From: Streptosporangiaceae bacterium
GTDB taxonomy: Bacteria > Actinomycetota > Actinomycetes > Streptosporangiales > Streptosporangiaceae
Assembly (NCBI GenBank): GCA_035511035.1
Contig: DATKFV010000039.1
Coordinates: 3,531-67,530, forward strand
DNA: 64,000 bases
Reading direction: 5' to 3'
A program made the translations under genes and the position numbers. Under the pieces are notes generated by a model. That model did not search any database and was not told where the DNA came from. It was given only the letters and a program-made list of their open reading frames with translations. Position 1 is the first letter of the stretch. The number at the start of each line of letters is the position of its first letter. Shown one piece after another: positions 726-17,944 of the stretch.

Positions 726-3626
726 ATGAATCAGGCTCCCGGTTGCGGCACCGTGAGACGCATGGAAACAGCTTTGCGAGCGCAGCCGCCGGCCCAGCGC
801 TGCCCGCGCTGCGCGGCCCCGGCTGACCAGCTTCGGTGCCAGGGATGCGGCGTGTGGCTCGGCGGGTCGGCGGCACGTGAGTTGCGGTGGGTCGATGCCG
901 AACTGGCCCGGCTCGATCAGTCCCGCGCGTGGCTGGTGAACCGGCGGATCGCCCTGCTCGCCGAGCTAGCCGCGACCGCCAGCGCCCCAGCTCCGGCCCC
1001 GGCTCCAGCCCTGGCCCCTTACTCGACGCGAGCTCCCGCCGAGCGTCCCGAGCGTCCCGAGCGTCCCGAGCGTCCCGAGCTGTCCGGCCGGGCCGTCGCC
1101 AGGCTCCTCCTCGCCGCCGGCGCCGTGCTGGTCGTGATCGCCGCCGCCGCGTTCACGGTCGCGAACTGGACCGACATCGGCGCCCTCGGCCGGAGCCTGA
1201 TCCTGCTCGCCATGACCGCGATCGTGCTGACCGCACCTGTGCCGCTGCGGCGCCGGGGCCTGGACGCGACCGCCGAGTCGGTGGCCGCGATCGGGCTGGC
1301 GTTCACGCTGGCCGACGCCTATCTGCTCGCCAGGCTCGCGCATCCCGGCCTCACCGGCGGGCCGCTCGCCGCTGGCTTGGTCACGGCCGTGCTCGCCGCG
1401 AGCTGGGCGGCCTACGGGATCGCCACCAGGCTGCGCGGGCCCCGCCTCGCCGCGATCGGGCTAGCCCAGCTGCCCCTCCTGTTCATCACCGCCGGGCTGG
1501 CGCCGCACTGCATCGCACTCGGCCTCGTGGTCACCGCCGCCGCCGACCTCGGCTTCGCCCGGTTCGCCGGCCAGCGCGAATGGAGACCTGAGCAGGTGAT
1601 GAGCCTGGCTGTCGGGGCGATCACCTGGCTGGCGGGCGTGCTGCTGGCGGGCGGGCAGGCGCTACTCGGGCCGCAACTCTGGTCGCCGGCCGCGCTGGCC
1701 GGGGCCGCCGCGATCGCCTGCTGGCTGGCGCCGTCAGCCGAGCGCGCCCTGACCAGGTGCGCGAGCATCGTCACCGGCACGCTGGCGATCCTGACGGTGC
1801 CGCTCGCCGGCTGGGCCCGGCTCGCCGTCCTCACCGTCGCCGCCGTCACGCTGGTCGCGCTGCCCGCTCTCGCCGGGGAAAGCCCAAGGACCAGCCGAGG
1901 GACCGGCCCCGAGACCAGCCCCGAGACCAGCCCCGAGGGTGACCGGCCTCAGGCCAGCCGATCCGCCGCCATCGACCGCACCTCCGCGAGTTGCGGGGCC
2001 GTGCTCGCGGCCGTCGCGGCGGCCTGGTCACTCGCAAGCCCGGCCATGACCGTGGCCGTGTTCGCCGTCCTCACGGTCGCCTTCGGGCTGACCGCCGCCC
2101 GCGCCAAGAGACTGGCCGCGCTCGGCACCGCCCTGGCCATCGCCGCCGCGACCGGCCTTGCCATCGCGGCCCCGCTCGCGGCGGGCTGGCCGGTCGCCAG
2201 AGCCGCGTTCGCCGCCGTCGGGGTCGCCGTGATCGCCCTGGTCACCGCCGCGCTCATCAGGGAACGCAAGCCGGCCCAGGCCCGCGTGCTCGACGTCGGC
2301 ACCGCCCCGCTCATCGTGCTGGCCGCGATCGTGGCCGCCCACGAGCCGGACGCGCTCGCGCTCGTCGCCGCCTGCGCGGCGGTGCTCGGCGGCGGAGCCG
2401 CCTGGGCCCGGGCCGGCCAGGGGCGGACCGTCGCGCTGATCGGCACCGGCTGCGCGGTCGCGGCCGCGATCGCCGCCCAGTTCAGGCCGCTCGCACTGGC
2501 CTGGGCCGCCCCGTTCAGGCAGCTCGGCCAGCCCTGGCACGGGCATCCGCTGCTCGTCGAGCACACCGGGCTCTCCTTCGCCATCAGCGTGCTGACGGTC
2601 AGCCTGGCCGCCGGGGTCGCCGCCGCCGGGGCCTGGCGCGGCCACCGGCGCGGCATACTCGACGCGGCCGCCACGGCCTGCGCCGTTCTGCTCGCCCCGG
2701 CCCTGCTCGCCGGCGGCCTGCCCTACGGCGTGGCTCTCGGCTGCGCGCTGGCCCTCACCCTGGTCCTGACCGGCTGGGCCGCGATCAGCGGCACCGTCGC
2801 CTCGGCCCGCGGCGCCGTGATCAGCACCGCAGTCACGCTCGCCTGGTCACTGGCGGGGCCGGCGCCTACCCTGATCACCCTCGGCGTCCTCGCCGCCGCT
2901 TACCCGCTCGCCGCCTGGCGCTGCCAGCGCCCGGCCGGCCGGGCCGTCGTCGAAGGCGTGGCCGTGCTCACGGCGGCCGGCTTCACGGCGGCGGCCGTGC
3001 TAGCTGCCGACGGCTCCGGCTGGCTGGCCACAGCCTGCGCCTTGAGCGTCGCAGCACTGAGCATCACAGGCTCGGCCTGGCGCCAGGGCCGAAGGCCGCT
3101 GCTCTGGACCGGGCTCGTGATCGCCGAGGCGGCCTGGTGCGCGTGGCTGATCACCTGGGGCGTCACCGCGATCGAGCCCTACACGGTCCCGGCCGCCGCG
3201 ATCGCGCTCGGCTTCGGCTGGCAGGCCGGCCAGCGCCGCGAAGAGCGCGGCGAAGAGCCCGGCGAAGAGCCCGGCTCCTGGGCGGCCTACGGCACGGGCC
3301 TGGCCATCCTGCTGCTGCCCAGCCTCATCGTGGCCTGGCAAGGCTACGGCTGGCTCCGCCCCGCGCTGCTCGCCGCCGGCGCGGCGGGCGTGGCGCTGGC
3401 CGGAGCGCGGTTGCGGCTCCAGGCGCCGCTGCTGACCGGCATCGCGGTCGCCGTGCTCGACGCCGGTCACCAGCTCACGCCCGAGATCCGCCAGCTGGCC
3501 CAGGCGCTGCCCGGCTGGCTGCCGGTCGCCGTCATCGGCGCCGCCCTGCTCTGGGCCGGCGCCACCTACGAGGCCAGGCTCCGCAACCTCGCCACCCTCC
3601 GCCACGCCCTAGCCACCCTCCGCTAG
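726..3626 (+). CDS. very large polytopic membrane protein with N-terminal zinc ribbon (SCO7613 C-terminal-domain-like)
   Basis: 966-aa ORF. N-terminus CPRCAAPADQLRCQGCGVW (CxxC..CxxC), then more than 20 Ala/Leu/Gly-rich hydrophobic segments. Three short in-frame peptide repeats. Alternative start METALR at 762. Confidence 0.6.
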   Translation: MNQAPGCGTVRRMETALRAQPPAQRCPRCAAPADQLRCQGCGVWLGGSAARELRWVDAELARLDQSRAWLVNRRIALLAELAATASAPAPAPAPALAPYSTRAPAERPERPERPERPELSGRAVARLLLAAGAVLVVIAAAAFTVANWTDIGALGRSLILLAMTAIVLTAPVPLRRRGLDATAESVAAIGLAFTLADAYLLARLAHPGLTGGPLAAGLVTAVLAASWAAYGIATRLRGPRLAAIGLAQLPLLFITAGLAPHCIALGLVVTAAADLGFARFAGQREWRPEQVMSLAVGAITWLAGVLLAGGQALLGPQLWSPAALAGAAAIACWLAPSAERALTRCASIVTGTLAILTVPLAGWARLAVLTVAAVTLVALPALAGESPRTSRGTGPETSPETSPEGDRPQASRSAAIDRTSASCGAVLAAVAAAWSLASPAMTVAVFAVLTVAFGLTAARAKRLAALGTALAIAAATGLAIAAPLAAGWPVARAAFAAVGVAVIALVTAALIRERKPAQARVLDVGTAPLIVLAAIVAAHEPDALALVAACAAVLGGGAAWARAGQGRTVALIGTGCAVAAAIAAQFRPLALAWAAPFRQLGQPWHGHPLLVEHTGLSFAISVLTVSLAAGVAAAGAWRGHRRGILDAAATACAVLLAPALLAGGLPYGVALGCALALTLVLTGWAAISGTVASARGAVISTAVTLAWSLAGPAPTLITLGVLAAAYPLAAWRCQRPAGRAVVEGVAVLTAAGFTAAAVLAADGSGWLATACALSVAALSITGSAWRQGRRPLLWTGLVIAEAAWCAWLITWGVTAIEPYTVPAAAIALGFGWQAGQRREERGEEPGEEPGSWAAYGTGLAILLLPSLIVAWQGYGWLRPALLAAGAAGVALAGARLRLQAPLLTGIAVAVLDAGHQLTPEIRQLAQALPGWLPVAVIGAALLWAGATYEARLRNLATLRHALATLR

Positions 3627-5011: not shown

Positions 5012-5911
5012 TTAAAGGTCCTTCAGCAGTCCCTTCATGTACCTGACGCTATTGGCCGGCGTCATCGCCTCGACGCTGAGCCGGTCCATCACCATCAGGT
5101 AATTGTCAAGCATCTCCGGTTTGTCCAGGTAGAGCGCGCTGGTGAGCTGCTCGAGGTAGACCACGTCCGGCAGGTCGAACTCGGCGAAGCGCAGAATGCT
5201 GAACGGGCCGCCCGCGGCGGCGTGTCCGCCCGCGGTGAACGGGACGACCTGGATCGTGACGTTGGTCCGCTGGGCCATCTCGACCAGGTGCCTGATCTGC
5301 GCCTGCATGATGTCGGGGCCGCCGATGTGGCGGCGCAGCACGGCCTCGTCGAGCACCGCCCAGATGTTGGGGGGCTCGGGCCTGGTGAAGACGACCTGCC
5401 GGGCCAGCCGGAGCGCGACTCGCCGGTCGAGGTCGCGCTCGGTCGCGTTCGGGTAGCCGAGCAGGGTGACCGCGCGAGCGTAGTCGCCGGTCTGCAGCAA
5501 GCCGGGCACGAACTGCACCTCGTAGGCGCGGACCTGGGTCGCGGCTTCCTCGAGCCCGACGTAGGCCTCGAACCAGCCAGGCAAGATGTCAGAGTAGTCG
5601 TGCCACCAGCCCGGCTTGTTGGCCCGCATCGCCAGGTCGCGCAGCGCCTGCCGCTCCTGCTCGTCGGTCACGCCGTACATGGTCAGCAAGTCCGCGATGT
5701 CGCGGTCCTTGAAGCCGACCCGGCCGGTCTCCAGTCGGCTGATCTTGCTGTGCGAGGCGCGGATCGCGTTACCCGCCTCTTCCAGCGAGATCCGCTTGTC
5801 CTCCCGCAGTCGCCTCAGCTGGGCGCCGAGCAAGATACGGAGGACGGTGGGACCGCCACCCCCGCCGGTGATCAGGCTCTCGACCCGCCCGGTCTCGGCT
5901 GCTTCGACCAT
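5012..5911 (-). CDS. XRE-family HTH regulator with DUF5753-type C-terminal domain (WhiJ/Scr1-like)
   Basis: HTH LGAQLRRLREDKRISLEEAGNAIRASHSKISRLETG. The C-terminal region resembles the abundant actinomycete family. Confidence 0.85.
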   Translation of the reverse strand: MVEAAETGRVESLITGGGGGPTVLRILLGAQLRRLREDKRISLEEAGNAIRASHSKISRLETGRVGFKDRDIADLLTMYGVTDEQERQALRDLAMRANKPGWWHDYSDILPGWFEAYVGLEEAATQVRAYEVQFVPGLLQTGDYARAVTLLGYPNATERDLDRRVALRLARQVVFTRPEPPNIWAVLDEAVLRRHIGGPDIMQAQIRHLVEMAQRTNVTIQVVPFTAGGHAAAGGPFSILRFAEFDLPDVVYLEQLTSALYLDKPEMLDNYLMVMDRLSVEAMTPANSVRYMKGLLKDL

Positions 5912-6111
5912 GCGTCCTCCCGAACGCTGCTCTTATGAAACCCCACTGCTCCTACTAGAACCCGCTGCGTGAGCCCAGTGCGGTCGGCTCAACCAATGGA
6001 GTGTCCCACGAACGCGGGCCATTCGGCTACAAGGCGGGCCTAAGCGGCATTGGAATACCGAAACTCCCCGTGTGGGCGGAAGAGCGCAGCGAGGGGGGTT
6101 TAGCGGAAATC

Positions 6112-6357
6112 CTATCCGACGAACAGGCCAGGACCATCGAAGTCGCCGTCGCGGGCACCGAGCAGGAAAGCCTCCCACTCGGCCTTGGTGAAGACCAGCG
6201 CCGGGCCGTCGGGGAAGCGCGAGTTGCGGACCGCGACCCCGCCGGTCGGCAGCCCGGCCGCCTCGACGCAGTTCCCGCTGGGGTTGCTGTAGCGGGACTT
6301 GCGCCAGGCCGCCTTGGCCAGCGAAGACGCCTGCACCCCGTTGTATGCGATGTCCAC
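6112..6357 (-). CDS. DUF397 domain protein
   Basis: 81 aa; WRKSRYSNPSGNCVEAAGLPTGGVAVRNSRFPDGPALVFTKAEWEAFLLGARDGDFD is the canonical DUF397 signature. Confidence 0.85.
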   Translation of the reverse strand: MDIAYNGVQASSLAKAAWRKSRYSNPSGNCVEAAGLPTGGVAVRNSRFPDGPALVFTKAEWEAFLLGARDGDFDGPGLFVG

Positions 6358-6587
6358 CGTAGATCCCTTCGCGGCGGCGGCTGATCCTGACTCTCCCGGC
6401 TTGCGACAAAGCGCCTAAAGCGCGCCAGCAGGGCCAATAACCACTGCCTCAAACGTTCTGTGCTGCTGCACTTGCATGTGCACGCCATTAATGGCATCGT
6501 AACGGACGAACAGGCTCTCTTGGTCTCGTCCCGATACCGGTGCGAGGCCGGACACGATGACGTCGTTGCATGCACTAGGGACATCAG

Positions 6588-7148
6588 GTGACATTCGCGC
6601 AGACCTGGGACGTGAGCTATGGCACGGAGGGGGGCGCTGGCGCCGCGCCCAGTCTGGTGTCCGCCAGCCCGGTCCCTGACCTCCCAGTACCTGACTTGCC
6701 AGTACCGGCGGTCACAGCTGCCTGTGCCGCGGCGTTTCCATCGAGCGTCAGGCAGGTCTTCCTCGCCATCGGCCCTGAGTCGGCCAAGGCGGCCCGCGAC
6801 TTCACCAAGTCGGTACTGCGCGAGTGGGGACTCGACGACCTCATCTCCGAGGCGGCGCTGATCGCCTCGGAGCTGGTCACGAACGCGATCAGGCACGGGG
6901 CGTGCGGTCCGGCTGAAGGCGACGACGAGACGCAGGCGAAGGTCGAGCTGGCCTGGCAGCGGCAGGCCAGCCGGGTCATCTGCGTGGTGACCGACCGCAG
7001 CCCGCTGCCGCCGGTGCTCGGAGCGGCCGACGCCGACGCCGAGTCGGGCCGGGGCCTTCAGGTCGTGGCGGCCATCGCGGCGGCTTGGGGCTGGACGATG
7101 CTCGGTGCCTGTAGCAAGGCGGTCTGGGCGGCCCTGGGCATCTTGTAG
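6588..7148 (+). CDS. ATP-binding protein, SpoIIAB-like anti-sigma-factor kinase (HATPase_c_2)
   Basis: ARDFTKSVLREWGLDDLISEAALIASELVTNAIRHG ... ESGRGLQVVAAIAAAWGW. Divergent from the DUF397/XRE pair. Start uncertain. Confidence 0.7.
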   Translation: MTFAQTWDVSYGTEGGAGAAPSLVSASPVPDLPVPDLPVPAVTAACAAAFPSSVRQVFLAIGPESAKAARDFTKSVLREWGLDDLISEAALIASELVTNAIRHGACGPAEGDDETQAKVELAWQRQASRVICVVTDRSPLPPVLGAADADAESGRGLQVVAAIAAAWGWTMLGACSKAVWAALGIL

Positions 7149-7210: not shown

Positions 7211-7936
7211 ATGAAACGCTGGTTCGCCATTGCCGTCGGATCCTTAGCAGTTCTCACTCTCTTCGGGACCGCGCTGTCGGGGCCCGCACTAGCCAACACA
7301 GCACTGGCCAGCCCGTTGCAGACCAGTTCCGATACCTCGACCAGTTGGGCAGGCTACTACCTGTCCGGGGCCAACGGCGCCTTCAGCAGCGTCTCGGCCT
7401 CGTGGACGGTGCCGACCGCGACCTGCGTCGCCGGCGACCAGTACGTCGCCTTCTGGGTCGGGCTCGACGGGGTCAGCAGCGACAGCGTCGAGCAAGTCGG
7501 GATGGACGCCGACTGCACCAGCGGCAGTCCCGACTACTACGGCTGGTACGAGATGTACCCGGCCGACCCGGTGTTCTTCAGCAACACCGTGAGCCCGGGC
7601 GACTCGATGAGCGCCTCGGTCACCTTCAGCGGCGCCGACACCTACACGCTGGTGCTCGCCGACTCGACCGCGGGCTGGACCCACACGATCACCAAGAACG
7701 AGTCCGGCCTGGCCCGGTCATCGGCCGAGGTAGTCACGCAGGGGCCGGGCACCAGTGGCAAGGTCACCGACTTCGGCAAGATCACCTACACCGCCTGCCA
7801 GGTCAACGGCACTTCGATGGGCACCCAGGATCCGACCGGGGTCACGATGGTGAACGGCAGCGGCAAGACGCTGGTGTCCACGTCGGCGATGACCTCGGCG
7901 GGCAAGTTCACCAACACCTGGGTCAGGCCCTCGTAG
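7211..7936 (+). CDS. secreted G1-family glutamic endopeptidase (eqolisin/peptidase A4-like)
   Basis: Signal peptide MKRWFAIAVGSLAVLTLFGTALSGPALA. Motifs SWAGYY, SASWTVPTATC, AFWVGLDG, VEQVG (catalytic Gln position), YGWYEMYP (catalytic Glu position). Confidence 0.7.
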   Translation: MKRWFAIAVGSLAVLTLFGTALSGPALANTALASPLQTSSDTSTSWAGYYLSGANGAFSSVSASWTVPTATCVAGDQYVAFWVGLDGVSSDSVEQVGMDADCTSGSPDYYGWYEMYPADPVFFSNTVSPGDSMSASVTFSGADTYTLVLADSTAGWTHTITKNESGLARSSAEVVTQGPGTSGKVTDFGKITYTACQVNGTSMGTQDPTGVTMVNGSGKTLVSTSAMTSAGKFTNTWVRPS

Positions 7937-9140
7937 CGCCCGCGCTCGCCGGTACCCGGATCGACCTGGCCCAGCCAGGGGCTTCGGGTGCGTCGTCACC
8001 GAGCAGGCCGACGACGACTCGCATGCTCTTGGGCCCGGCGTCCGGCCAGGGCGTGTAGCCGTCGGTGAGCACGACCGTGACGCTCGGCCGCGGCCGCAGC
8101 GCCGCCGCGGCCACGATCCCTGCCCCCATGTCGGTGCCGCCGCCGCCGACCAGCTCGACCTGCCGGGCCGAGGTGATCCGGCGGGCCGCCGACGCCGCCG
8201 TGTCGCAGGCGATCACGCGCAGCTGCCTGGCCAGGCCGAGCGCTCGCAGCAGGCCGTCCACCTCGGCGAGCGCCGCGGCGAGCAGGTCATCGGTCATGCT
8301 GCCGGAGGTGTCGCAGACGACCGCTACCTGCGGCTGCGGGCGGCGCAGCGCGGGCAGCACGACCGGCCCGGCCACGCTGGCCCGCCGGGATGGTCGCCGG
8401 TAGGAGTAGTCGACCGCGCCCATCGTGTCGGCGATCGCCTTGCGCAGCTCGGCGGTAAGCGCCCGGCGCCAGTCGACGGTCGGCGCGAGCAGCTCGGTGG
8501 CCCAGCGCAGCAGGCCGGCCGGGACGGTGCCCGGTTCATGGCCGTGCTGCTTGGTGACCTCCTGGGCGACCAGCCGGCGCAGCAGGCGGGCTTGCCACGG
8601 GGACAGGCCGGGCTGGCCGGGCTGGCCGGGCTGGCCGCTTCCTTCCCACGGGCGGTGCAGGCCGTCGGCGCCGCTGCCGCAGTCCAGGTTCCAGGCGGGC
8701 TGGCCTTGCATGCCCCTGGTCGCGGTGAAGTAGGCCTCGGCGAGCAGGCCGGGAGGACGGCGCAGGTGGTGCGGCAGCACCGGGGTGCCGGGCAACTCGA
8801 GCCCGGCCGGGATCAGGTCGTCGTTGATCTCCGCGTCCGCGCCGCGCATCCACGCCTGGGCGTCGTGAGTCTCGACGCCGGCCCCGGCCGCCCTGGCGCC
8901 GTGCTCGCGGAGCAGGTGGCAGACGTGGTGCACCAGCACGCTGCCGAGCTGGGCGGCGGACCAGCCCGCCGTTATCTCCGGGTCGGCCCAGAGGCGCCAC
9001 TGCTCGTCGACGGCGACGGTGCCGATGCCAGGCGCTGGCGCGGGCACGATCCCGAACACGCCGCTGGCCAGGTAGGGGAACTTCGCCGCGGCCCAGAGCC
9101 GCGCCGGGCCGAGCGCCTCGGCGGCTCGTTCTTCGGTCAC
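7923..9140 (-). CDS. VWA domain protein with DUF2201-type metallopeptidase-like N-terminal domain
   Basis: 405 aa. N-domain ...LGSVLVHHVCHLLREH...WMRGADAEINDDL. C-terminal VWA domain with MIDAS VAVVCDTSGSM. GTG 9140 overlaps the upstream stop (GTGA). Confidence 0.8.
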   Translation of the reverse strand: MTEERAAEALGPARLWAAAKFPYLASGVFGIVPAPAPGIGTVAVDEQWRLWADPEITAGWSAAQLGSVLVHHVCHLLREHGARAAGAGVETHDAQAWMRGADAEINDDLIPAGLELPGTPVLPHHLRRPPGLLAEAYFTATRGMQGQPAWNLDCGSGADGLHRPWEGSGQPGQPGQPGLSPWQARLLRRLVAQEVTKQHGHEPGTVPAGLLRWATELLAPTVDWRRALTAELRKAIADTMGAVDYSYRRPSRRASVAGPVVLPALRRPQPQVAVVCDTSGSMTDDLLAAALAEVDGLLRALGLARQLRVIACDTAASAARRITSARQVELVGGGGTDMGAGIVAAAALRPRPSVTVVLTDGYTPWPDAGPKSMRVVVGLLGDDAPEAPGWARSIRVPASAGATRA

Positions 9141-10234
9141 CGCAGCAGCCCGGCGTCCCGTAGCACCGGCGTGAACTGCTTCACCTCGGGTGGCATCGGC
9201 GCGTTGGGCGGGCGGCAGCGGACAAGCAGCCGGGCGGCGACGGCGGCCACGTCAGGGGCCGACTTGGCCGCGAGGCCGAGCACCTGCCAGCCGGCCGCCC
9301 ACCGCTCCGGGGTCGGATCGGCCGCGACCACGGCGGCGACCGCGGTCACCGCCGCGTAGGCCCGGTCGCTGCGGCGCGGCAGCGTGAACGAGGCCGGGTC
9401 GGCGAGCACGGCCTCAGGGTCGGGCAGGTCCATCTCGGTGATCCAGGCGAGGAACTCGGCGGCGGCGCCGTCCCCGACCGCGCCGGCCACCAGCGCGGCC
9501 TTCGCGTCATCGCTGGCCTCGGCCGCGGTGCCGGCCGCCCAGAGCCTGGCCGCCATCTCCCAGGTACGGGGCGACGGCCAGCCCTTGCCCGCGCTCGCCG
9601 CGTCCGCCGGCGGCGCGCTCACCAGCGCGGGCCTGGCCCGCAGGAACGCGCCCACGAGCGCGAGCGTGACCCGCCGCTCGGCCTCCCAGCCGTCCGGCAG
9701 GACCGGCACCACCGGGGCGACGAACCCGGCCGCCAGCCCTTCCGCGACCGCGCGCGGGTCGATCTCCCAGGCCAGGTGGCACATCCGGTTGGCCAGCGGG
9801 GCGGACAGGTCCCAGCCGTCGGCCGCCTGCTCAGGCGGGTTGGCGGCCGCCACGACCGCGACGTCGGGTGGCAGCTCGAGGTCACCGACCACGCGCTCGA
9901 GCACGACCCGCAGCAGCGCGGCCTGGACGGCCGGGGGAGCGGTGGACAGCTCGTCCAGGAACAGCAGTCCCCGGCCCGCCTGCGCTAGCCGTCGGGCCCA
10001 GGCCGGCGGCGCGAAGATCACCTCGCCGTCGATCACCACGGGCAGCCCGGCGAAGTCAGAAGGCTCCCTGATCGAGGCGATCACGGTCTCGCACGGCCAG
10101 CCCATCGCGTCGGCCACGGCCCTGATCGTGGCTGTCTTGCCGGTGCCGGGCGCGCCCCAGAGCAGGACGGGCACCCGGGCCGCGACCGCGACGCCCAGGG
10201 CCTCGGTGGTCGTATCGAGCAGCCTTCCCTTCAT
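9137..10234 (-). CDS. MoxR-type AAA+ ATPase (AAA_5; CbbQ/NorQ-like)
   Basis: Walker A VLLWGAPGTGKT, Walker B GLLFLDELSTAPP, sensor region VVAAANPPE. I place the start at ATG 10234 (MKGRLLDTT), which overlaps the stop of the upstream gene as ATGA. The upstream part of ORF 9137..10390 is Arg/Gly-rich. Confidence 0.85.
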   Translation of the reverse strand: MKGRLLDTTTEALGVAVAARVPVLLWGAPGTGKTATIRAVADAMGWPCETVIASIREPSDFAGLPVVIDGEVIFAPPAWARRLAQAGRGLLFLDELSTAPPAVQAALLRVVLERVVGDLELPPDVAVVAAANPPEQAADGWDLSAPLANRMCHLAWEIDPRAVAEGLAAGFVAPVVPVLPDGWEAERRVTLALVGAFLRARPALVSAPPADAASAGKGWPSPRTWEMAARLWAAGTAAEASDDAKAALVAGAVGDGAAAEFLAWITEMDLPDPEAVLADPASFTLPRRSDRAYAAVTAVAAVVAADPTPERWAAGWQVLGLAAKSAPDVAAVAARLLVRCRPPNAPMPPEVKQFTPVLRDAGLLR

Positions 10235-11136
10235 GCCGCCACCGTCCAGCCCCGACGCCGGCGCGTCACGGTGCCCGGCTCCGGCTCTCGTCCTGGCTGA
10301 CTCACGGACCTGACCTGCAGGACCGGCCAGCTGCCACCGGTCACCGCCACGACCAGCCGCCCGCCGACGACGGCCAGGCCAGGCGCCCACACGCCAGCCA
10401 GCCAGCCGACCGGCAGCGCGGCGCTGAGGTCGCCGCCCGTCATCGTCAGCTCGCCCCAGCCATCGCCCTCGGGGCTGGTCACGTGGACCTGATCGGGATC
10501 GATCTTGAGCCAGGCGGCGGCCGCGGGCGCGAGGCGCCCGGCGATGGCGGCGGTAAGCGTCGGGCGGTGCTGGCCCGCTGGCCGGGTGGCCCAGCTGGCG
10601 GCGACCGTCGCCGACAGGCGGAGCTGAAAGGCCGGGCCAAGATTCATGAGGTCGACCAGCTCGGTGCGGCGCTGAGTCGCCGGGTCGTCACCATGACGGC
10701 CGCGTGCTCGCCGGTGGCTCACTGTCAGTCCGCTGGTCACGGTCAGGGTGGAGGAGTACGCCACGGCCGCGAACGAGGACCCGGATCCGCCCGGCCGAAT
10801 CATCGGGTGGCTGGCGGCGCGCCTGCTGCCCAGTCCGATGAGCCCCGAGCCGCTGCTCAGCATCGTCGTGCCTTCCTCGGGGCCGGGAACCTTGTCCTTG
10901 GCGCTACGCGGCCCGAGCGCGAGGACGTCGAGGTCATCGCTGTGGCTGCCCCAGGCCCTGACCAGCCGGACGCACTCGGGCTCATCGCCGCCGAGGGCCG
11001 CGAGCACCAGTTCGGACTCGGCGTCCTCGTGGTCGGTGGCGATGAGCTCGCCGGCCTGCCAGCGCAGTTGGTGCTTCGCTGAGCCGCATCTGACCTTGGC
11101 CGACACCGGCGCGCACGCCTCCCACCACTGCGTCAC
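10231..11136 (-). CDS. uncharacterised protein B2 (paralogue of 12842..13714)
   Basis: I place the start at GTG 11136 (VTQWWEACAP...), which overlaps the A2 stop as GTGA. Aligns by eye with B1: HQLRWQAGEL/HRLRWKEGVL, ELVLAALGGDEPECVRLVRAW/ELVLTALGGDETECLRLVRLW, LGPAFQLRLSATVAASWA/LGPAFQLRLTATVASAWA. No family recognised. Confidence 0.7.
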   Translation of the reverse strand: MTQWWEACAPVSAKVRCGSAKHQLRWQAGELIATDHEDAESELVLAALGGDEPECVRLVRAWGSHSDDLDVLALGPRSAKDKVPGPEEGTTMLSSGSGLIGLGSRRAASHPMIRPGGSGSSFAAVAYSSTLTVTSGLTVSHRRARGRHGDDPATQRRTELVDLMNLGPAFQLRLSATVAASWATRPAGQHRPTLTAAIAGRLAPAAAAWLKIDPDQVHVTSPEGDGWGELTMTGGDLSAALPVGWLAGVWAPGLAVVGGRLVVAVTGGSWPVLQVRSVSQPGREPEPGTVTRRRRGWTVAA

Positions 11137-12845
11137 GGCGTCGCCTCTCCGCCCGGTACCTGCGCATCCGGTACCGGTCCGCCTGCTGTCAGCCACGTCA
11201 GCGGCAGTGTCACGGTGACTCGCTCCGAGGTGCCAGCGACAATGAGGTCGACCGACGTCGCCATTGGGTGCAGCGGTGGCACAAGCTCGATGGTCAGGTC
11301 GGTCTGGTCGTCGCTCTGGGAACTCTCCGAGCCCGCCGCGTGGTGCCAGCGGCCGGTGTCGTCACGAGCCCACACGCCCGGAGTCTCGCGCAGCCGGGCA
11401 CTGCGGTCGACCTGGCGCCGGTGGTCAGTCCCGGCAAGGCTCCAGCCGAACAGGCGCAATTGCATCGACTTCGCGGTCGAGCGCAGTCCGGCCAGGGCCC
11501 AGCTGGTGCCGTCGAGGTCGGGCAGCACAGCGGCGGCCGGAATGACGCCGACGGGCCCGTCCGCTGCGTCCGCGTCGTCGAGCACGCTCCGCCAGGCCGG
11601 CGGAAGCTCGGTGTCGGCGAGGTTCGCCAGGCTGGCGGGCAGGGCGAAGTCCAGGCGCCGGCCCAGCGAGGCGAGCTGGCGCAGCGCGGGGCTGTCCGGC
11701 GCCACGACCCCGGCCCCGGTGAGCGCTCCGGTCACGATAGGCAGGGCGAACTCGGCCACGGGCCCGGCCTCTGGTGATAGCCGCCGCAGCTTGAGCATGG
11801 TCTCGGCCAGGGCGCTGACGCATTGCTCGGCGCGAAGGTCGGCGGGCAGCTGCTCGGCGGTCAGCTCCGGCGGGGCCGGCGGGGCGTCGAGCGGGACCCG
11901 GACGGGCGGCGTGCCCGGCCACAGGGTCAGGTCCAGCCAGCGGGCGCTGGTCGCCGGCGCCGGCGTCAGCTCAAGCTGGCTGGTCCACAGCTCGTCATCG
12001 TCCTCGTCCCCGTCGGCGTCGTTGGTGTAGTAGGCCGCGTCGTAGTCAGTGCCCTGGTCATCGGTGACGGTCGCCTCGAACAGGAACTCGGTGGGCTCGT
12101 AGTCGTCGTCATCGTCTTCTGGCTGCTCGGCCGGCTCGTCGTCTGGCTGGTCGTCGTCCAGGGCTGGAGGCGGCTTGGCCGTCAAGGTCAGCACGGCGCG
12201 ATCGTTATCGATCACCAGGCTCAGCAGGTTCACCTCGGCCCTCCGCTCCTCCAGCGCGAGCGGCACGTGCCTGCCGATGCTGATCGCGGTGAGCGGCCGG
12301 GCTGGCTGGCCGGCGGTCGGCCGCTGCGGCGAGCCCCACCAGCCCGCCCCGAACGGCCAGTCGTCCAGGCGCCGGCGCAGGACCAGCGCGAGCCGGTAGC
12401 TATCAACGATCGCGTCCGCCGCCGCGGACTCGAGCGCGCCGGCGGCGACTAGGGTTCCGGCGGCGGCCGCGAGCCGCGTGATCCCGGCGTTGATCGTAGG
12501 GTTCGGCGAGCGGTGACGGCCGCCCAGCGTGTGGGCGGAGACGAACCAGCCGCCCTGCCGGTGGCGGCGCCTGGGCCCCAGCCAGCGACCGAACCCCGGC
12601 CGCTCCGCCTGGAGCCGCGCGATCCTGACCGCCCGCGCCCGCCTGGACACCCGGCGGAACAGGAGGCGCAGCGGCCTGACTCGACGCAGCCTTCGCTGCG
12701 GTCGCTCCAGCCAGGGCCAGGGCGGCCGGCGGAGGGGGCGCTGCTTGACCGCGCCGCGGAGCTCTGCCTCGGCCAGCACCCGCAGGTACGTCTCGGCCCG
12801 CTCGGTGTCCACCAGCCGGGCCGCGCCCGATCCGTGCTCCGTCAT
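11133..12845 (-). CDS. uncharacterised protein A2 (paralogue of 13711..15171) with Arg-rich and Asp/Glu-rich insertions
   Basis: ORF track gives 11133..13550. I start at ATG 12845 (MTEHGSGAARLVDTERAETYLRVLAEAELRG), which overlaps the B1 stop as ATGA and matches the A1 N-terminus (AETYLRSLAEAQLRQ). Shared blocks: LADTELP, WARDDTG.W, TS.DLI..G.S.R.T.T.PL. Confidence 0.7.
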   Translation of the reverse strand: MTEHGSGAARLVDTERAETYLRVLAEAELRGAVKQRPLRRPPWPWLERPQRRLRRVRPLRLLFRRVSRRARAVRIARLQAERPGFGRWLGPRRRHRQGGWFVSAHTLGGRHRSPNPTINAGITRLAAAAGTLVAAGALESAAADAIVDSYRLALVLRRRLDDWPFGAGWWGSPQRPTAGQPARPLTAISIGRHVPLALEERRAEVNLLSLVIDNDRAVLTLTAKPPPALDDDQPDDEPAEQPEDDDDDYEPTEFLFEATVTDDQGTDYDAAYYTNDADGDEDDDELWTSQLELTPAPATSARWLDLTLWPGTPPVRVPLDAPPAPPELTAEQLPADLRAEQCVSALAETMLKLRRLSPEAGPVAEFALPIVTGALTGAGVVAPDSPALRQLASLGRRLDFALPASLANLADTELPPAWRSVLDDADAADGPVGVIPAAAVLPDLDGTSWALAGLRSTAKSMQLRLFGWSLAGTDHRRQVDRSARLRETPGVWARDDTGRWHHAAGSESSQSDDQTDLTIELVPPLHPMATSVDLIVAGTSERVTVTLPLTWLTAGGPVPDAQVPGGEATP

Positions 12846-13714
12846 GGCGTCACCGTCCACTTGCTCGCCCGGCGGACCACTGTGAGCGGTTCGGGCCTGT
12901 CGCCGGGCCGGCGCACGGCCAGGACCGTCGCCCTCGGCCCGTTCACCTCGGTCACGCCGACTGCCAGCCGGCCGTCGACCACCGAAAGCCCGGCGGCCCA
13001 GACGCTCGCCAGCCAGCTCAGCGGCAGCGTGGCCCGCAGCCCGGACTCGGTCCGCTCGAGGTCGCCCCATCCTGGGCCATCGTGTCGCGACACCTGGACT
13101 TGATCGGGGTCGATGCCGAGCCAGCCTGCGGCGACCGGCGCGAGCCGGCCAGCGAGCGCCTGGGCCAGCCTCGGCTCGGTGCTCGGCGGGATCTTGCGGT
13201 CCGCCCACGCGGACGCGACGGTCGCGGTCAGCCTGAGCTGGAACGCCGGGCCGAGTGCTAGCAGCGCCAGCAGTTCGACCCGGTGCTCCCCGACCGGGTC
13301 GAAGCCGGAGCGGCGAAGCGCGTTGTGGCGCGCTACTACATGCGCGACGGAAGGCGGGCCGATGCCGGCGGTCACGACGACCCTGTGGCCCTTGGCTAGC
13401 CTGCGCGGGGCGAGCGGCGCGGTGAGCTGTATCACCGTCGCCCGCTCGTCCCGCACCAGCTTGAGACGGTCGGTCGGGGTGCGCGGGCCGATCGTGAAGA
13501 CGTTCAGGTCGTCGGCGTGCTGGCTCCACAGTCGGACCAGCCGAAGGCACTCGGTCTCGTCACCGCCGAGCGCAGTCAGGACAAGCTCGGCCTCGCTGTC
13601 CGGGTGCGCGGGCGCGCTGAGCACGCCCTCCTTCCAGCGCAGCCGGTGCGGGCCCGCAGCGCACGCGACGGTCGCTGACGCCGGCGGCAAGGCCGCCCGC
13701 CAGGGCTCGGTCAC
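12842..13714 (-). CDS. uncharacterised protein B1
   Basis: 290 aa. GTG 13714 overlaps the A1 stop (GTGA). Paralogous to B2. Conserved Cys/His positions in the first 60 aa. No family recognised. Confidence 0.7.
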   Translation of the reverse strand: MTEPWRAALPPASATVACAAGPHRLRWKEGVLSAPAHPDSEAELVLTALGGDETECLRLVRLWSQHADDLNVFTIGPRTPTDRLKLVRDERATVIQLTAPLAPRRLAKGHRVVVTAGIGPPSVAHVVARHNALRRSGFDPVGEHRVELLALLALGPAFQLRLTATVASAWADRKIPPSTEPRLAQALAGRLAPVAAGWLGIDPDQVQVSRHDGPGWGDLERTESGLRATLPLSWLASVWAAGLSVVDGRLAVGVTEVNGPRATVLAVRRPGDRPEPLTVVRRASKWTVTP

Positions 13715-15171
13715 GACGGCCCGCCGTCGAGCGGGATGGTGGCGGTCAGCCGGCCCGACAGGCCGGACAGGATGAGGTCGAGGCTGGTCGCGTCCAGGCT
13801 GAGCTCAGGCGTCAGCTCTAGGTCGAATTCGGCGCCGTCCTCTCCCAGGCCGCCGTTATCCACGCTGGTGAAGTACCACTGCCCGGTATCGTCACGAGCC
13901 CACCAGGTGAAAGGCTCGGGCAGCGTGTCGAGGCCATAATGCATCAGGTGACGGGCGCCTACGGGCACGCCCCAGCCGAGCACGTTCATCCTGAGCCAGT
14001 TGCCGGCGCGGCGCATCCCGGCGACGGTCCAGCGGGCTCCCCCGAGTTCGGGGAAGACGATCGCGGCGGGCAGCGCTCCAGATAGCTGCTGCCGGAACCG
14101 CCTTGAGTCCCAGGAGTCCTCGCCCCGACCGTTCGGCGGCATCGCCGCGATCGCACTCAGCCACTCCTCGGGCAACTCGGTGTCGGCCAGGCCAGCGAGC
14201 TCATCGGGCAGCCTCAGCTTGAACCGCCTGGCCACGGTGGCTAGCCGGCTCAGGGCGAGGCTGCCAGGCTCGATCACGCCGGTGGCGGTGAACGCCTCGA
14301 TCACCCGGTCCAGTTCGGTATTGGCAGCCAGGCTGGTGCCGATTTTTCGGTTCCTGACCAAGGTGATCAGCAGTTCCTCGGTCGCCGCGTCAATGTAGCG
14401 CTCGGCCGGGGTCGCCTCGTGCCGTTCGCGCGTCGCGACCATCGGCTGGACGGGCGCCCGGCTCAGGTCGACTCGCAGTGGCTCGGCCCCCGCGCCGAAG
14501 TCGAGCTCGACCCAGGTCAGCCCCTCCAGCCCGGCCGGCAGCGGCGAGTTCAGCTCAACTCGGCCGCCGACGTGATCATGGCTGCCGCCGCCCCAGAACT
14601 TGCCGCCGCGCTTGCCGCCGTTGCTATCGGTGATGATCACCTGGCTGAGGACGTCGTACCACCCCGGCGATGTCATCGCCCAGCCGACCCGGTTGTGCGT
14701 GGTGATCCGGTTGACCTCGACCGTCAGCACCGTCCGGTCGGGCGCGGCCACGAGCGCGAACGGCGTGATCGTCGCTGGCTCACCGTCGATGTCGGTCACG
14801 ACCTGCGTTTCGACGCTCACCGTGCGGAACGGGCCTGCGGGCGCTGGCTTGACCTGATACCGACGCCACTGCGGGGTGATCAGGCGCTCGAACGAGTCGT
14901 TCCGAATACGCCCCCTGGCCGCGAGCGCGACCTCGAGATCGACCGCTATCTCGTCAGCGGTCGCTGTGTCGATCGCACCGACGTCGCTGAGCGCTCCGGC
15001 CGCTAGCTGCACGCTCTGCAACTCGCGCCACGCGTCCGAGCCTCGCCGCCCGGCCGCCTGGCGTAGCTGGGCCTCGGCCAGTGACCGCAGGTACGTCTCG
15101 GCGTCCTGGATCACGGCACCATTGCGCGTCACGAAACGAGCGTATTGCTGAATCCGGGCTACCTGGGTCAT
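13711..15171 (-). CDS. uncharacterised protein A1
   Basis: ORF 13711..15177 begins at TTG. ATG 15171 (MTQVARIQQYARF...) has GGAG 9 nt upstream. Paralogous to A2. No signal peptide or TM segment seen. No family recognised. Confidence 0.7.
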   Translation of the reverse strand: MTQVARIQQYARFVTRNGAVIQDAETYLRSLAEAQLRQAAGRRGSDAWRELQSVQLAAGALSDVGAIDTATADEIAVDLEVALAARGRIRNDSFERLITPQWRRYQVKPAPAGPFRTVSVETQVVTDIDGEPATITPFALVAAPDRTVLTVEVNRITTHNRVGWAMTSPGWYDVLSQVIITDSNGGKRGGKFWGGGSHDHVGGRVELNSPLPAGLEGLTWVELDFGAGAEPLRVDLSRAPVQPMVATRERHEATPAERYIDAATEELLITLVRNRKIGTSLAANTELDRVIEAFTATGVIEPGSLALSRLATVARRFKLRLPDELAGLADTELPEEWLSAIAAMPPNGRGEDSWDSRRFRQQLSGALPAAIVFPELGGARWTVAGMRRAGNWLRMNVLGWGVPVGARHLMHYGLDTLPEPFTWWARDDTGQWYFTSVDNGGLGEDGAEFDLELTPELSLDATSLDLILSGLSGRLTATIPLDGGPS

Positions 15172-15219
15172 GATCAAGGCTCCGGGGCGCCCAACTCACC
15201 GCTTGGACGGATCACGATC

Positions 15220-16020
15220 ATGGATACCATCAAGGCGGCTGAGCTGCTGCTCGATGCCTATCGCAGCGGCGTTCCAGTCGCTCCGCTCACGGAGACCTTC
15301 GGCGACTTCACGCCGGAAGAGGCGTATCAGGTCCAGCTTCACCAGGTCGATCACTGGCGCCAGGACGGCCGCACCGTCAAGGGCCACAAGGTCGGGCTGA
15401 CCTCGGCCGCGATGCGCCGCCAGATGGGGGTCGACCAGTCCGACTACGGCCACCTGATGGACGCCATGTTCCACTCCGACGCTGACCCGATCGACGCCGG
15501 CCGCTTCCTGCAGCCGAGGATCGAGCCCGAGATCGCGTTCGTGCTCGGCCATGACCTGGCCGGGCCCGGCGTCAGCGCGGCGGCCGCGATCGCCGCGGTC
15601 GAGTTCGTGCTGCCCGCGCTCGAGCTGATCGACTCTCGGATCAAGGACTGGAAGATTACCCTCCCCGACACTATCGCCGACAACGCTTCCTCCGGCGGCG
15701 TCGTGCTCGGCAGCACCCCGTCCCGGCTGGACGGGCTTGACCTCGCCCTGGCCGGGTGCCTGCTGGCCCGCAACGGCAGGCTGGCCGAGACCGGGGCCGG
15801 CGGGGCCGTGCTCGGCAACCCGCTTAACGCGCTGATCTGGCTGGCCAACACGATCGGCGAGCAGGGCGTGACGCTGCGGGCCGGTGACGTGATCCTGCCT
15901 GGCTCGATCACCGCGTCGATCCCGATCACCGCCGGGGACACGATCACGGCGACCTACGCCGGGCTCGGGACGGTCACCGCCGTGTTCGCCGAGGCCAGCC
16001 CAGCCGGGGAGGCCGCATGA
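15220..16020 (+). CDS. 2-keto-4-pentenoate hydratase (MhpD/HsaE-type, FAH fold)
   Basis: Start [14 protein letters not shown] inside ORF 15145..16020. Motifs [20 protein letters not shown]. First gene of a hydratase/dehydrogenase/aldolase triplet. Confidence 0.8.
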
Positions 16021-16913
16021 GCCGCACCGCCGCGATCGTCGGCCCTGGGAACATCGGCACCGACCTGCTGGCCAAGCTCCAGCGGCTTGACCAGCTCCAG
16101 GTCAAGTACATGATCGGGGTCGACCCCGACTCCGACGGCCTGCGCCGGGCCGCCGAGCGCGGCGTCACCGCGTCGGCGGAGGGCGTCGACTGGCTGCTCG
16201 GCCAGGACGACCTGCCTGACCTGGTCTTCGAGGCCACGTCGGCCAAGGCCCACGCGGCTAACGCGCCGCGCTACGCGGCGGCCGGGATCCAGGCGATCGA
16301 CCTGACCCCGGCCGCGCTCGGCCCGTTCGTGTGCCCGCCCGTCAACCTGGCCACCGTCGCCGACGTGCCCAACCTGAACATGATCAGCTGCGGCGGGCAG
16401 GCCACGATCCCGATCGTGCACGCGGTCAGCCGGGTCGCCCAGGTCGCCTACGCCGAGATCGTGGCCTCGATCGCGTCCCGCTCGGCCGGCCCTGGCACCA
16501 GGGCCAACATCGACGAGTTCACCAAGACCACGGCGCGCGGAATCGAGGACGTCGGTGGCGCGGCCAAGGGCAAGGCGATCATCGTGCTCAATCCGGTCAA
16601 CCCGCCGATGATCATGCGGGACACCGTGTTCTGCTCGCTGCCGCCCGGCACCGACACCGACGCGGTCGCCGAGTCGGTGTTCGCGATGGTGGACCAGGTC
16701 AAGACCTACGTGCCCGGCTACGCGCTGCGAGCCGACCCGCAGTTCGACGAGCCTCGTGATGACTGGGGCGGCAACGGCCGGGTCGGCGTGCTACTCGAGG
16801 TAGCCGGCAGCGGTGACTACCTGCCGCCATGGGCCGGGAACCTGGACATCATGACCGCCGCCGCCGCCCGCGTCGGCGCGCTCCTCGCCGACCGGAAGGG
16901 GGTGCCGGCATGA
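16017..16913 (+). CDS. acetaldehyde dehydrogenase (acetylating) (MhpF/DmpF/HsaG-type)
   Basis: [18 protein letters not shown]..., [12 protein letters not shown] (catalytic Cys). ATGA overlap with the upstream gene. Confidence 0.9.
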
Positions 16914-17944
16914 CCGACATCGCTCTCCCGAAGGTCAGGCTGACCGACTCCACGCTGCGGGACGGCAGCCATGCGATGGCCCACCAGTTCACCGAAGGCC
17001 AGGTCAGGGCCGTCGTGAACGCGCTCGACAACGCCGGGGTGCAGGTCATCGAGGTGACCCACGGCGACGGCCTCGGCGGGTCATCGTTCACCTACGGGTT
17101 CTCGCTCACCGACGAGCTCAAGCTGATCGCCGCCGCCGTCGACGAGGCCACCACCGCCAAGATCGCGGTCCTCATCCTGCCGGGCGTCGGCACCGTCGAC
17201 GACCTCCGCAACGCCCGCGACGCGGGCGCCTCGGTAGCGCGGGTCGCGACCCACTGCACCGAGGCCGACATCTCGGCCCAGCACTTCGCGGCCGCCCGCG
17301 ACCTCGGCATGGAGACGGTCGGGTTCCTCATGCTGGCGCATCGCAGCGACCCGGCGGCGCTTGCCCGCCAGGCCCGGATCATGGTCGACGCAGGCGCGGA
17401 ATGCGTGTACGTGGTCGACTCGGCCGGCGCGCTCGTGCTCGGCGAGGCCCAGCTGAGGGTCGAGGCGCTGGTCGCCGAGATCGGCCGGGACGCCCAGGTC
17501 GGCTTCCACGGGCACCAGAACCTGTCGCTCGGCATCGCCAACTCGGTCCTGGCCTACCAGAACGGCGCCACCCAGATCGACGGCGCCCTCTGCGCCCTCG
17601 GCGCAGGCGCGGGCAACGCCCCGACCGAGATCCTGGCCGCCACCTTCGACAAGCTAGGCGTGCCCACGGGCATCGACGTCAGCGCCGCCCTCGCCGCCGC
17701 CGACGAGGTCGTCCGCCCGTTCCTGCCGAGGATCCCCTGGGCCGACCGCGCCTCGATCGTCCAGGGCCACGCCGGCGTCTACTCCAGCTTCCTCCTCCAC
17801 GCCGAACGCGCCGCCCAGCGCTACGGCGTCCCCGCCCACCAGATACTCCAGCGCGCCGGCGAAGCCGGCTACGTCGGCGGCCAGGAAGACATGATCATAG
17901 AAATAGCCCTAGACCTAGCCAAGGAACAGGGGCAGTCGCTCTGA
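16910..17944 (+). CDS. 4-hydroxy-2-oxovalerate aldolase (MhpE/DmpG/HsaF-type)
   Basis: Start [22 protein letters not shown] at ATG 16910 (ATGA overlap). Motif [15 protein letters not shown]. Confidence 0.9.

Follow-up and report, generated by a model that had tools for sequence, protein, structure and literature searches.

Two undescribed partner families of a MoxR-VWA ATPase-adaptor pair in Streptosporangiales-type soil actinomycetes

Few AAA+ machines are as widespread as the MoxR-VWA couples, and few are as poorly understood; in most cases the client is unknown. Clients that are matured or recycled by such couples include Rubisco (by CbbQO), NO reductase (by NorQD) and respiratory complexes (by RavA-ViaA). 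In the classical pairs, i.e. RavA-ViaA, CbbQ-CbbO, NorQ-NorD and CoxD-CoxE, an ATPase hexamer works together with an adaptor that carries a metal ion-dependent adhesion site (MIDAS), and both are encoded beside the client genes (PMC7159879). A further group is formed by the MoxR-vWA-centric ternary conflict systems, which fall into the VMAP, iSTAND, FtsH and beta-propeller classes (Kaur et al. 2020, PMC7159879), and the Esr pathway of oral Actinobacteria has been described as such a system (bioRxiv 10.64898/2026.09.08.750141). Finally, a MoxR gene paired with a metallopeptidase-vWA gene is found in group 2.2 jumbo phages, including Atu_ph07, for which a chaperone or processing role in virion assembly was proposed (Iyer et al. 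2021, PMC7824862). Here we analyse a six-gene cassette in a 64,000-nucleotide stretch of a Streptosporangiaceae bacterium (GenBank assembly GCA_035511035.1, contig DATKFV010000039.1, positions 3,531 to 67,530), which is referred to as the window and to which all coordinates refer. The last two genes encode a MoxR-VWA pair, and the four genes upstream of them encode two proteins each of two families that we call A and B. An earlier note, made from the sequence alone, had put forward the whole cassette as an undescribed system. This is correct for the partners but not for the core, as MoxR with peptidase-VWA is already known from jumbo phages (PMC7824862). What is new is the two undescribed partner families, A and B, in a MoxR-VWA-centred multi-component system; no description of A/B-type partners was found in the searchable literature on DUF2201 with MoxR and on MoxR/VWA/metallopeptidase combinations.

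The cassette consists of six open reading frames (ORFs) without internal stops that span positions 7923-15171 on the minus strand, as do all of its features mentioned below. The order is A1 (13711-15171, 486 aa), B1 (12842-13714, 290 aa), A2 (11133-12845, 570 aa), B2 (10231-11136, 301 aa), MoxR (9137-10234, 365 aa) and VWA (7923-9140, 405 aa). Reading of the ORFs reproduced this chain exactly as the earlier note had drawn it, and the five junctions are indeed 4-nt start/stop overlaps, namely GTGA at 13711-13714, ATGA at 12842-12845, GTGA at 11133-11136, ATGA at 10231-10234 and GTGA at 9137-9140. The identical cassette is present on two metagenome contigs of the Joint Genome Institute (JGI), where independent gene calls gave proteins of 486/467, 290, 570, 301, 365 and 405 aa. 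The third-position G+C of the six ORFs is 0.86-0.94, as for genuine genes in a genome of ~70% G+C. The cassette does contain two diverged A-B modules, A1 being paralogous to A2 (28% identity, E 4e-36) and B1 to B2 (47% identity, E 1e-74). No convincing transmembrane segment was found in any of the six proteins, which agrees with what had been said of A and B. Chains of 4-nt overlaps are ordinary in high-GC actinomycete operons, so the overlaps are unremarkable by themselves. The recurrence of the gene order in 79-80 of 80 other genomes, on the other hand, is far beyond chance, and since the combination of A/B with MoxR-VWA recurs in about 80 related genomes we conclude that it is a real molecular system.

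The comparison rests on a scan of one genome per GTDB species, which gave 133 loci with a B relative, the best 80 of which were analysed (the 80 loci). They belong to Streptosporangiales-type soil metagenome-assembled genomes (MAGs) assigned to Streptosporangiaceae, Trebonia, Nocardiopsaceae and unnamed soil Actinomycetes. A lies next to B at every one of the 80 loci, and MoxR follows downstream at 79; the synteny of A/B homologues with MoxR-VWA, on which the idea of a system depends, is thus found in other genomes as well. The DUF2201 VWA gene is present at 67/80 loci, and most of the remaining loci are on truncated contigs. Long contigs for which Pfam annotation was already available show this gene order, too. 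The distribution is narrow and mainly covers uncultured organisms, and the named members of the A and B families are all entered as 'hypothetical protein' from Streptosporangiaceae-labelled MAGs. Carriage of A and B themselves on mobile elements was also considered, and it was rejected because B is absent from plasmids (only B was searched there) and both A and B are absent from IMG/VR viral contigs.

The architecture of the loci varies in the number of modules. The simple arrangement A-B-MoxR-VWA occurs at about 47 loci, followed by PrimPol-A-A-A-B-MoxR-VWA (11 loci), PrimPol-A-A-B-MoxR-VWA (7 loci), A-A-B-MoxR-VWA (5-6 loci), A-B-A-B-MoxR-VWA (3 loci and the window), B-A-MoxR-VWA (2 loci) and A-A-A-B-A-MoxR-VWA (a single locus). 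The A copies were counted by the coordinates of hidden Markov model (HMM) matches, a strict motif expression being too narrow for counting. For a single MoxR-VWA pair there are thus 1-4 copies of A and 1-2 copies of B. Two A-B modules per ATPase-adaptor pair, as the window suggested at first sight, fit within this range, but they are not the typical case: the single module is the ancestral and commonest form, and the duplication in the window is a lineage-specific variant. In a tree of B proteins, B1 and B2 of the window are each other's sister, have long branches and fall outside the B proteins of the 80 loci; the A-B duplications of L065, L068 and L073 are in separate clades, so the A-B module was duplicated independently at least two times.

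The MoxR protein is the sole AAA+ protein of the operon. It passes the gathering scores of both AAA_5 (36.7 bits, cut-off 22) and bpMoxR (31.9 bits, cut-off 27), and its Walker A (GAPGTGKT, 10133-10156) and Walker B (LLFLDEL, 9947-9967) motifs are intact, so there is no reason to revise its first identification as an AAA_5/MoxR ATPase. The Walker A, Walker B and sensor residues are invariant in 71 orthologues. The VWA protein matches DUF2201_N (114 bits, E 1e-32) and DUF2201 (67.6 bits, E 1.5e-18). Its N-terminal, zincin-like DUF2201_N domain contains the motifs HHVCH (8916-8930) and ADAEINDD (8817-8840), and the C-terminal VWA domain contains a complete MIDAS made up of DTSGS (8298-8312), GGGTD (8130-8144) and LTDG (8058-8069), all three of which are invariant in 59 VWA orthologues. 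The description of this protein as metallopeptidase-like with a VWA domain is therefore right with respect to the domains and the MIDAS and needs correction with respect to the peptidase: the protein has HHVCH and not the HExxH with catalytic Glu of an active zincin, and is probably not a canonical peptidase. HHVCH is present in the window and in 59/59 cassette-linked orthologues, and HExxH (as HEVGH or HELLH) is kept in homologues from plasmids of Rhodococcus (RHA1 pRHL2) and Mycolicibacterium (M. vanbaalenii) and from Thermus phage phiFa. The loss of the catalytic Glu (E to H) is specific to the A/B-linked lineage, and because of this loss the zincin-like domain is probably a binding module.

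Relatives of the core pair are found in phages and on plasmids. MoxR matches phrog_1297 (E 3e-53) and VWA matches phrog_1314 (E 4e-34), both nearly over their full length. Tblastn found VWA homologues of about 44% identity on 67 actinobacterial plasmids, beside an AAA ATPase gene and among establishment-type genes, and further matches in Agrobacterium phage Atu_ph07 and in Thermus phage phiFa, where the core pair is located in the early replication region. The jumbo-phage and plasmid pairs resemble that of the cassette in having an AAA_5-type MoxR and an N-terminal zincin-like domain fused to a MIDAS-containing VWA domain. They differ in three respects, i.e. HExxH is kept there in place of the invariant HHVCH, A and B are missing, and the pair either has a proposed role in virion assembly or processing or is set in a replication or establishment module. 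The A and B HMMs gave no match on the plasmid MoxR-VWA loci, and the expectation that A and B go with every member of this MoxR-VWA subtype was thus contradicted by the plasmid and phage relatives. Two plasmid loci, one on R. jostii RHA1 pRHL2 (L088) and one in M. vanbaalenii (L089), have a VWA gene followed by an ORF of ~65 aa, a gene for a hypothetical protein of ~400 aa and an AAA ATPase gene, and in L089 an additional AAA ATPase gene is directly upstream of VWA. Their surroundings include PAPS-reductase-family, GIY-YIG, DUF4262, DUF4192 and large methyltransferase genes. These plasmid loci may be a distinct variant of the same core, equally uncharacterised.

The general features of the cassette can also be compared with those of the ternary conflict systems. 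Both have a MoxR-vWA couple together with conserved, quickly diverging components that are thought to sense and transduce, and the inactive peptidases of the ternary systems have a parallel in the catalytically degenerate peptidase domain of the cassette vWA protein (PMC7159879). In addition, the MoxR of the window passes the bpMoxR threshold of Pfam, and occurrence in actinobacteria is common to both. However, the P-loop of the cassette MoxR is the canonical GAPGTGKT and not GxxxTAKS, the vWA protein is short (405 aa) and lacks an effector array, linked genes for effectors or kinase/FHA proteins are absent, and the cassette often has a core-genome position. None of the four classes accommodates it. 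With respect to the VMAP class, neither A nor B has a VMAP match in Pfam at E <= 1, and the vWA protein contains only DUF2201_N and VWA; the models of A and B are without the P-loop fold of the iSTAND class; a tandem FtsH-type AAA+ component is not present; and there is no propeller in the 405-aa vWA protein, the bpMoxR match being the sole link to the beta-propeller class. Among the systems of PADLOC-DB v2, A1, B1, A2, B2 and VWA had no match and MoxR had generic AAA matches only.

As regards the classical pairs, the cassette is likely to have the same general mode of action, with an ATPase that works together with a MIDAS adaptor. The differences are in the surroundings, the adaptor and the clients. 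Rubisco, NO reductase, CO dehydrogenase, fumarate reductase and LdcI are all not nearby in the window, as had been noted before for the known metabolic clients; the cassette adaptor has a zincin-like domain; and A and B, the candidate clients, are novel and evolve fast.

The A and B proteins had been left without a family, and this has not changed, since neither A1 and A2 nor B1 and B2 match any family of Pfam, NCBIfam, PADLOC or PHROGs. The A family is large: an exhaustive profile search found at least 1178 representatives after clustering at 50% identity, and 682 of these have E <= 1e-10. The A proteins are acidic, with an isoelectric point (pI) of about 5.1 (5.1 for A1). The AlphaFold2 (AF2) model of A1 (predicted local distance difference test, pLDDT, 78; predicted template modelling score, pTM, 0.78) has a helical bundle at the N-terminus, followed by two beta-sandwiches with a helical domain between them. 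A Foldseek comparison of this model with the PDB returned generic Ig-like sandwiches only (3fbq, NEAT and Ig domains), and neither the model nor the comparison revealed an enzymatic fold or a cofactor site.

Strong conservation within the A family is confined to one block in the N-terminal helix, residues 24-37 of A1 (AETYLRSLAEAQLR, 15061-15102). The mean identity of the first 20 alignment columns is 0.76, as compared to 0.36-0.6 in the remaining columns. Over about 125 A copies, extra paralogues included, four charged residues on a single face of this helix (E25, R29, E33 and R37) are at least 90% conserved, and the same holds for D182, G185 and Y188 of the first sandwich and D427, G430 and W432 of the second. 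In ~121 A copies the four helix residues are invariant. We propose that the charged N-terminal helix is a docking helix. The second-sandwich residues are contained in the motif WWARDDTGQW (13876-13905), and its equivalent in the first sandwich is TDxxG (14608-14631); the two sandwiches are in register at a D-x-x-G...LEL.P motif, although marginally (hhalign E 0.07). In A2 the equivalent of the N-terminal helix is at 12756-12797, and there are two inserts without counterpart in A1. The one directly after the helix is Arg-rich (12501-12740, 25 R/K in 80 aa), and the other, in the first sandwich, is poly-acidic (11991-12158, with 28 D/E in the overlapping 70-residue stretch 216-285). The Arg-rich insert could be a nucleic-acid-binding segment and the poly-acidic insert could act as a DNA mimic or as a ligand of the MIDAS. 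Both inserts are also present in a close A2 homologue (P0123).

The B family has at least 996 homologues in a collection of 5.8 billion proteins, none of which is annotated. A weak WCX match of B2 (E 0.024) was dropped because it did not recur in 60 B members, and no other Pfam family was recurrent among these 60, even with weak matches included. Likewise, the B profile found nothing among PDB sequences. The AF2 model of B1 is confident (pLDDT 87.6, pTM 0.81) and consists of an N-terminal beta3-alpha domain that is joined by a disordered linker to a helical domain, with a beta domain at the C-terminus. No relative of the B model was found by Foldseek in the PDB (best E 0.37) or in BFVD (best E 0.34), so that the predicted fold is apparently novel. 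Four residues of B, C18, H23, H37 and C56 in B1 (13547-13663), corresponding to C17, H22, H36 and C55 in B2 (10972-11088), are invariant in 60 homologues and follow the pattern C-x4-H-x13-H-x18-C. In the B1 model C18 and H23 flank a beta-hairpin turn, and C56 begins a helix. This conserved set suggests a candidate metal (zinc) site. It is not a SWIM zinc finger (CxCxnCxH), for which there was no Pfam match in B1 or B2 at E <= 1 or in the 60 B members. In terms of charge, B is the opposite of A, with a pI of 10.3 for B1 and 8.6 for B2.

The four components diverge at very different rates. The median pairwise identity over the same 50 genomes is 0.815 for MoxR, 0.716 for VWA, 0.481 for B and 0.310 for A, and the order is the same in pairs whose MoxR proteins are at least 90% identical, where the values are 0.924, 0.841, 0.687 and 0.583, respectively.

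In about 40% of the 80 loci the cassette shares its operon with a gene for a PrimPol or a PolA-like DNA polymerase. A LigD-type PrimPol (LigD_Prim-Pol/DNA_primase_S) is present in 23/80 loci (e.g. L001:3711-5027 and L002:12062-13528) and is co-directional in the loci inspected; in one clade it directly precedes the first A, and in another it comes after VWA, from which a DUF998 gene separates it. The ORFs concerned overlap or nearly abut. In a third clade (10/80 loci: L010, L018, L019, L026, L032, L035, L055, L071, L076 and L079) a PRK14975-type 3'-5' exonuclease/DNA polymerase and a UMP kinase are inserted between B and MoxR (e.g. L018:9892-12339). The UMP kinase is a bona fide PyrH (TIGR02075, 273 bits, above the cut-off), and the operon of these ten loci thus contains the essential housekeeping gene pyrH. 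A further PolA-like copy, that of L069, is not inserted between B and MoxR but located ~8 kb downstream of B. Since each of the three arrangements is monophyletic in the B tree, the polymerase linkage amounts to about three evolutionary events only. As a hint at a meaningful association, this linkage is suggestive but weak. PrimPol, PolA-like and pyrH genes do not accompany the cassette of the window.

With respect to its surroundings, the aroA-rsgA-inositol monophosphatase-CBS gene group is an upstream flank common to many loci, i.e. a core-chromosome position, but the cassette of the window is in a different chromosomal context, outside this flank and with no polymerase nearby. The operon is bounded upstream by a divergent operon of the meta-cleavage lower pathway (15220-17944) that encodes a 2-keto-4-pentenoate hydratase-like FAA_hydrolase, an acetaldehyde dehydrogenase and an HOA aldolase (HMGL/DmpG). 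The region between the A1 start codon and the hydratase ATG (15220) is presumed to contain the operon promoter (15172-15219). As it is only 48 bp long, the two operons either have a very compact common control region or are leaderless. No sigma-70-like site was found in these 48 bp, and a promoter and terminator scan gave nothing useful. On the other side, the operon is bounded by a gene of the peptidase A4 (scytalidoglutamic peptidase) family (7211-7936) that is convergent with VWA; at their 3' ends, 14 nt belong to both coding regions. It is followed by a WhiJ-type cluster, typical of sporulating actinomycetes (5012-7148). Two genes of this cluster are on the minus strand and encode an HTH_31+DUF5753 regulator (5012-5911) and a small DUF397 protein (6112-6357), and a third one, on the plus strand, encodes a HATPase_c_2 anti-sigma-like protein (6588-7148). 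A predicted membrane protein of 966 aa is encoded at 726-3626, with a sub-threshold DUF2157 match and a local G+C of 74-76%. The G+C of the cassette is 73.8% as compared to 70.2% for the rest of the window; the surplus is in codon positions 1 and 2 and not in position 3, where the G+C agrees with the host. No tRNA, integrase, repeats or Rfam element flanking the cassette was found in the window.

Our best reading is that the cassette is a MoxR-VWA system of four components, particular to a lineage of uncultured Streptosporangiales-type soil actinomycetes, in which specificity would be conferred by A as the variable subunit and B would be an adaptor that stays constant. A and B would form a complex via the charged N-terminal helix of A; we infer this complex because the translational coupling of A and B is conserved, their charges are opposite, and the proposed docking helix is the only constant surface of A. 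The VWA adaptor would then grip an acidic or extended segment of the A-B complex through its MIDAS and its peptidase-derived cleft and hand it to the MoxR hexamer, which would spend ATP to remodel, release or activate the complex. A would recognize the ligand and B would serve as the constant adaptor, and extra copies of A or of A-B would broaden the range of ligands for one ATPase-adaptor pair. By analogy to the ternary conflict systems (PMC7159879), we favour a surveillance or threshold role of the cassette, directed at a variable intracellular ligand, a suggestion that is tentative and that we would place just short of an even chance. Since co-operonic PrimPol or PolA-like polymerases recur, the surveyed ligand may have to do with DNA that is foreign or damaged. 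It is a more doubtful step to regard the cassette as a fifth class of MoxR-vWA surveillance systems, in which an expandable set of fast-evolving, Ig-like A sensors would be docked on a metal-binding B of new fold, gated by an ATPase-adaptor pair of phage or plasmid origin, with a trigger or output tied to DNA synthesis via the PrimPol or PolA-like polymerases, the whole being fixed in the chromosomes across a large clade of uncultured soil actinomycetes.

Several points weigh against a surveillance role. There is no recognisable effector domain (nuclease, TIR, active protease or pore) in the cassette, the cassette is absent from PADLOC, plasmids and viral contigs, and the cassettes in core-chromosome position appear to be vertically inherited, unlike typical patchy defence islands. 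A may diverge fast because, as a structural or disordered client, it is under relaxed constraint, and not because of diversifying selection. The polymerase linkages map to single clades and amount to about three events only, and one of them is accompanied by the housekeeping gene pyrH, which is compatible with neutral rearrangement. Some of the same facts would be expected if MoxR-VWA were a housekeeping chaperone for assembly or maintenance, with A and B as ordinary clients, i.e. subunits of a structural or enzymatic complex specific to the lineage, or accessory factors in DNA synthesis and repair, and with no role in conflict. The position beside aroA, rsgA, inositol monophosphatase and the CBS protein in many genomes, the apparent vertical inheritance with a B tree that follows the locus architectures, the co-operonic PrimPol, PolA-like polymerase and true PyrH, and the lack of an effector domain all point in this direction, as do the phage relatives of the core pair that are in replication modules or were proposed to be assembly chaperones (PMC7824862). 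We nevertheless consider a housekeeping role, the main alternative, less likely than surveillance: clients are normally conserved, yet A and B have 31% and 48% identity as compared to 82% for MoxR, the copy number of A varies from 1 to 4, A has no enzyme-like fold or cofactor site, and the cassette of the window is outside the core context with no polymerase nearby.

A third explanation, which in part overlaps with both a surveillance and a housekeeping role, is that a phage or plasmid MoxR and peptidase-VWA pair was captured and re-purposed, A and B being its new, host-specific partners; such a module might exclude related elements as a dominant-negative form or decoy of the element's own machinery. 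The nearly full-length matches of the core pair to phrog_1297 and phrog_1314 agree with this origin, and so do the 44%-identity homologues among establishment-type genes on 67 actinobacterial plasmids and the loss of the catalytic Glu in only the chromosomal, A/B-linked lineage, as for a decoy or a binding-only derivative. As an account of the cassette we find it improbable, since A and B are never on viral contigs, B is never on plasmids, the cassette of the window has no integrase, repeats or tRNA beside it, and its third-position G+C is that of the host. Finally, the six genes might be mere neighbours, A and B having nothing to do with MoxR-VWA and the overlaps reflecting the compact packing of a high-GC genome, in which such 4-nt overlaps are common (as in other actinomycete operons); as A-B-MoxR-VWA have the same order and strand in 79-80 of 80 species-level genomes, although the flanks are rearranged, and also in the different context of the window, this is hardly credible.

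The partners of a MoxR-VWA couple could here be pinpointed by near-obligate synteny, and they add two sizeable unannotated families, one of which has a confidently predicted fold without relative in the PDB or BFVD. The gradient of divergence together with the expansion of A copy number provides a testable hypothesis as to which subunit confers specificity, and the lineage-specific loss of the Glu, as opposed to the phage and plasmid relatives, is a natural experiment on the re-purposing of a chaperone/protease pair of mobile elements. If the cassette does act in conflict, it would represent a new architecture among the MoxR-vWA immune-like systems of multicellular bacteria; if it acts in DNA metabolism, a MoxR chaperone would be linked to PrimPol- or PolA-type polymerases, a link that is so far undescribed.

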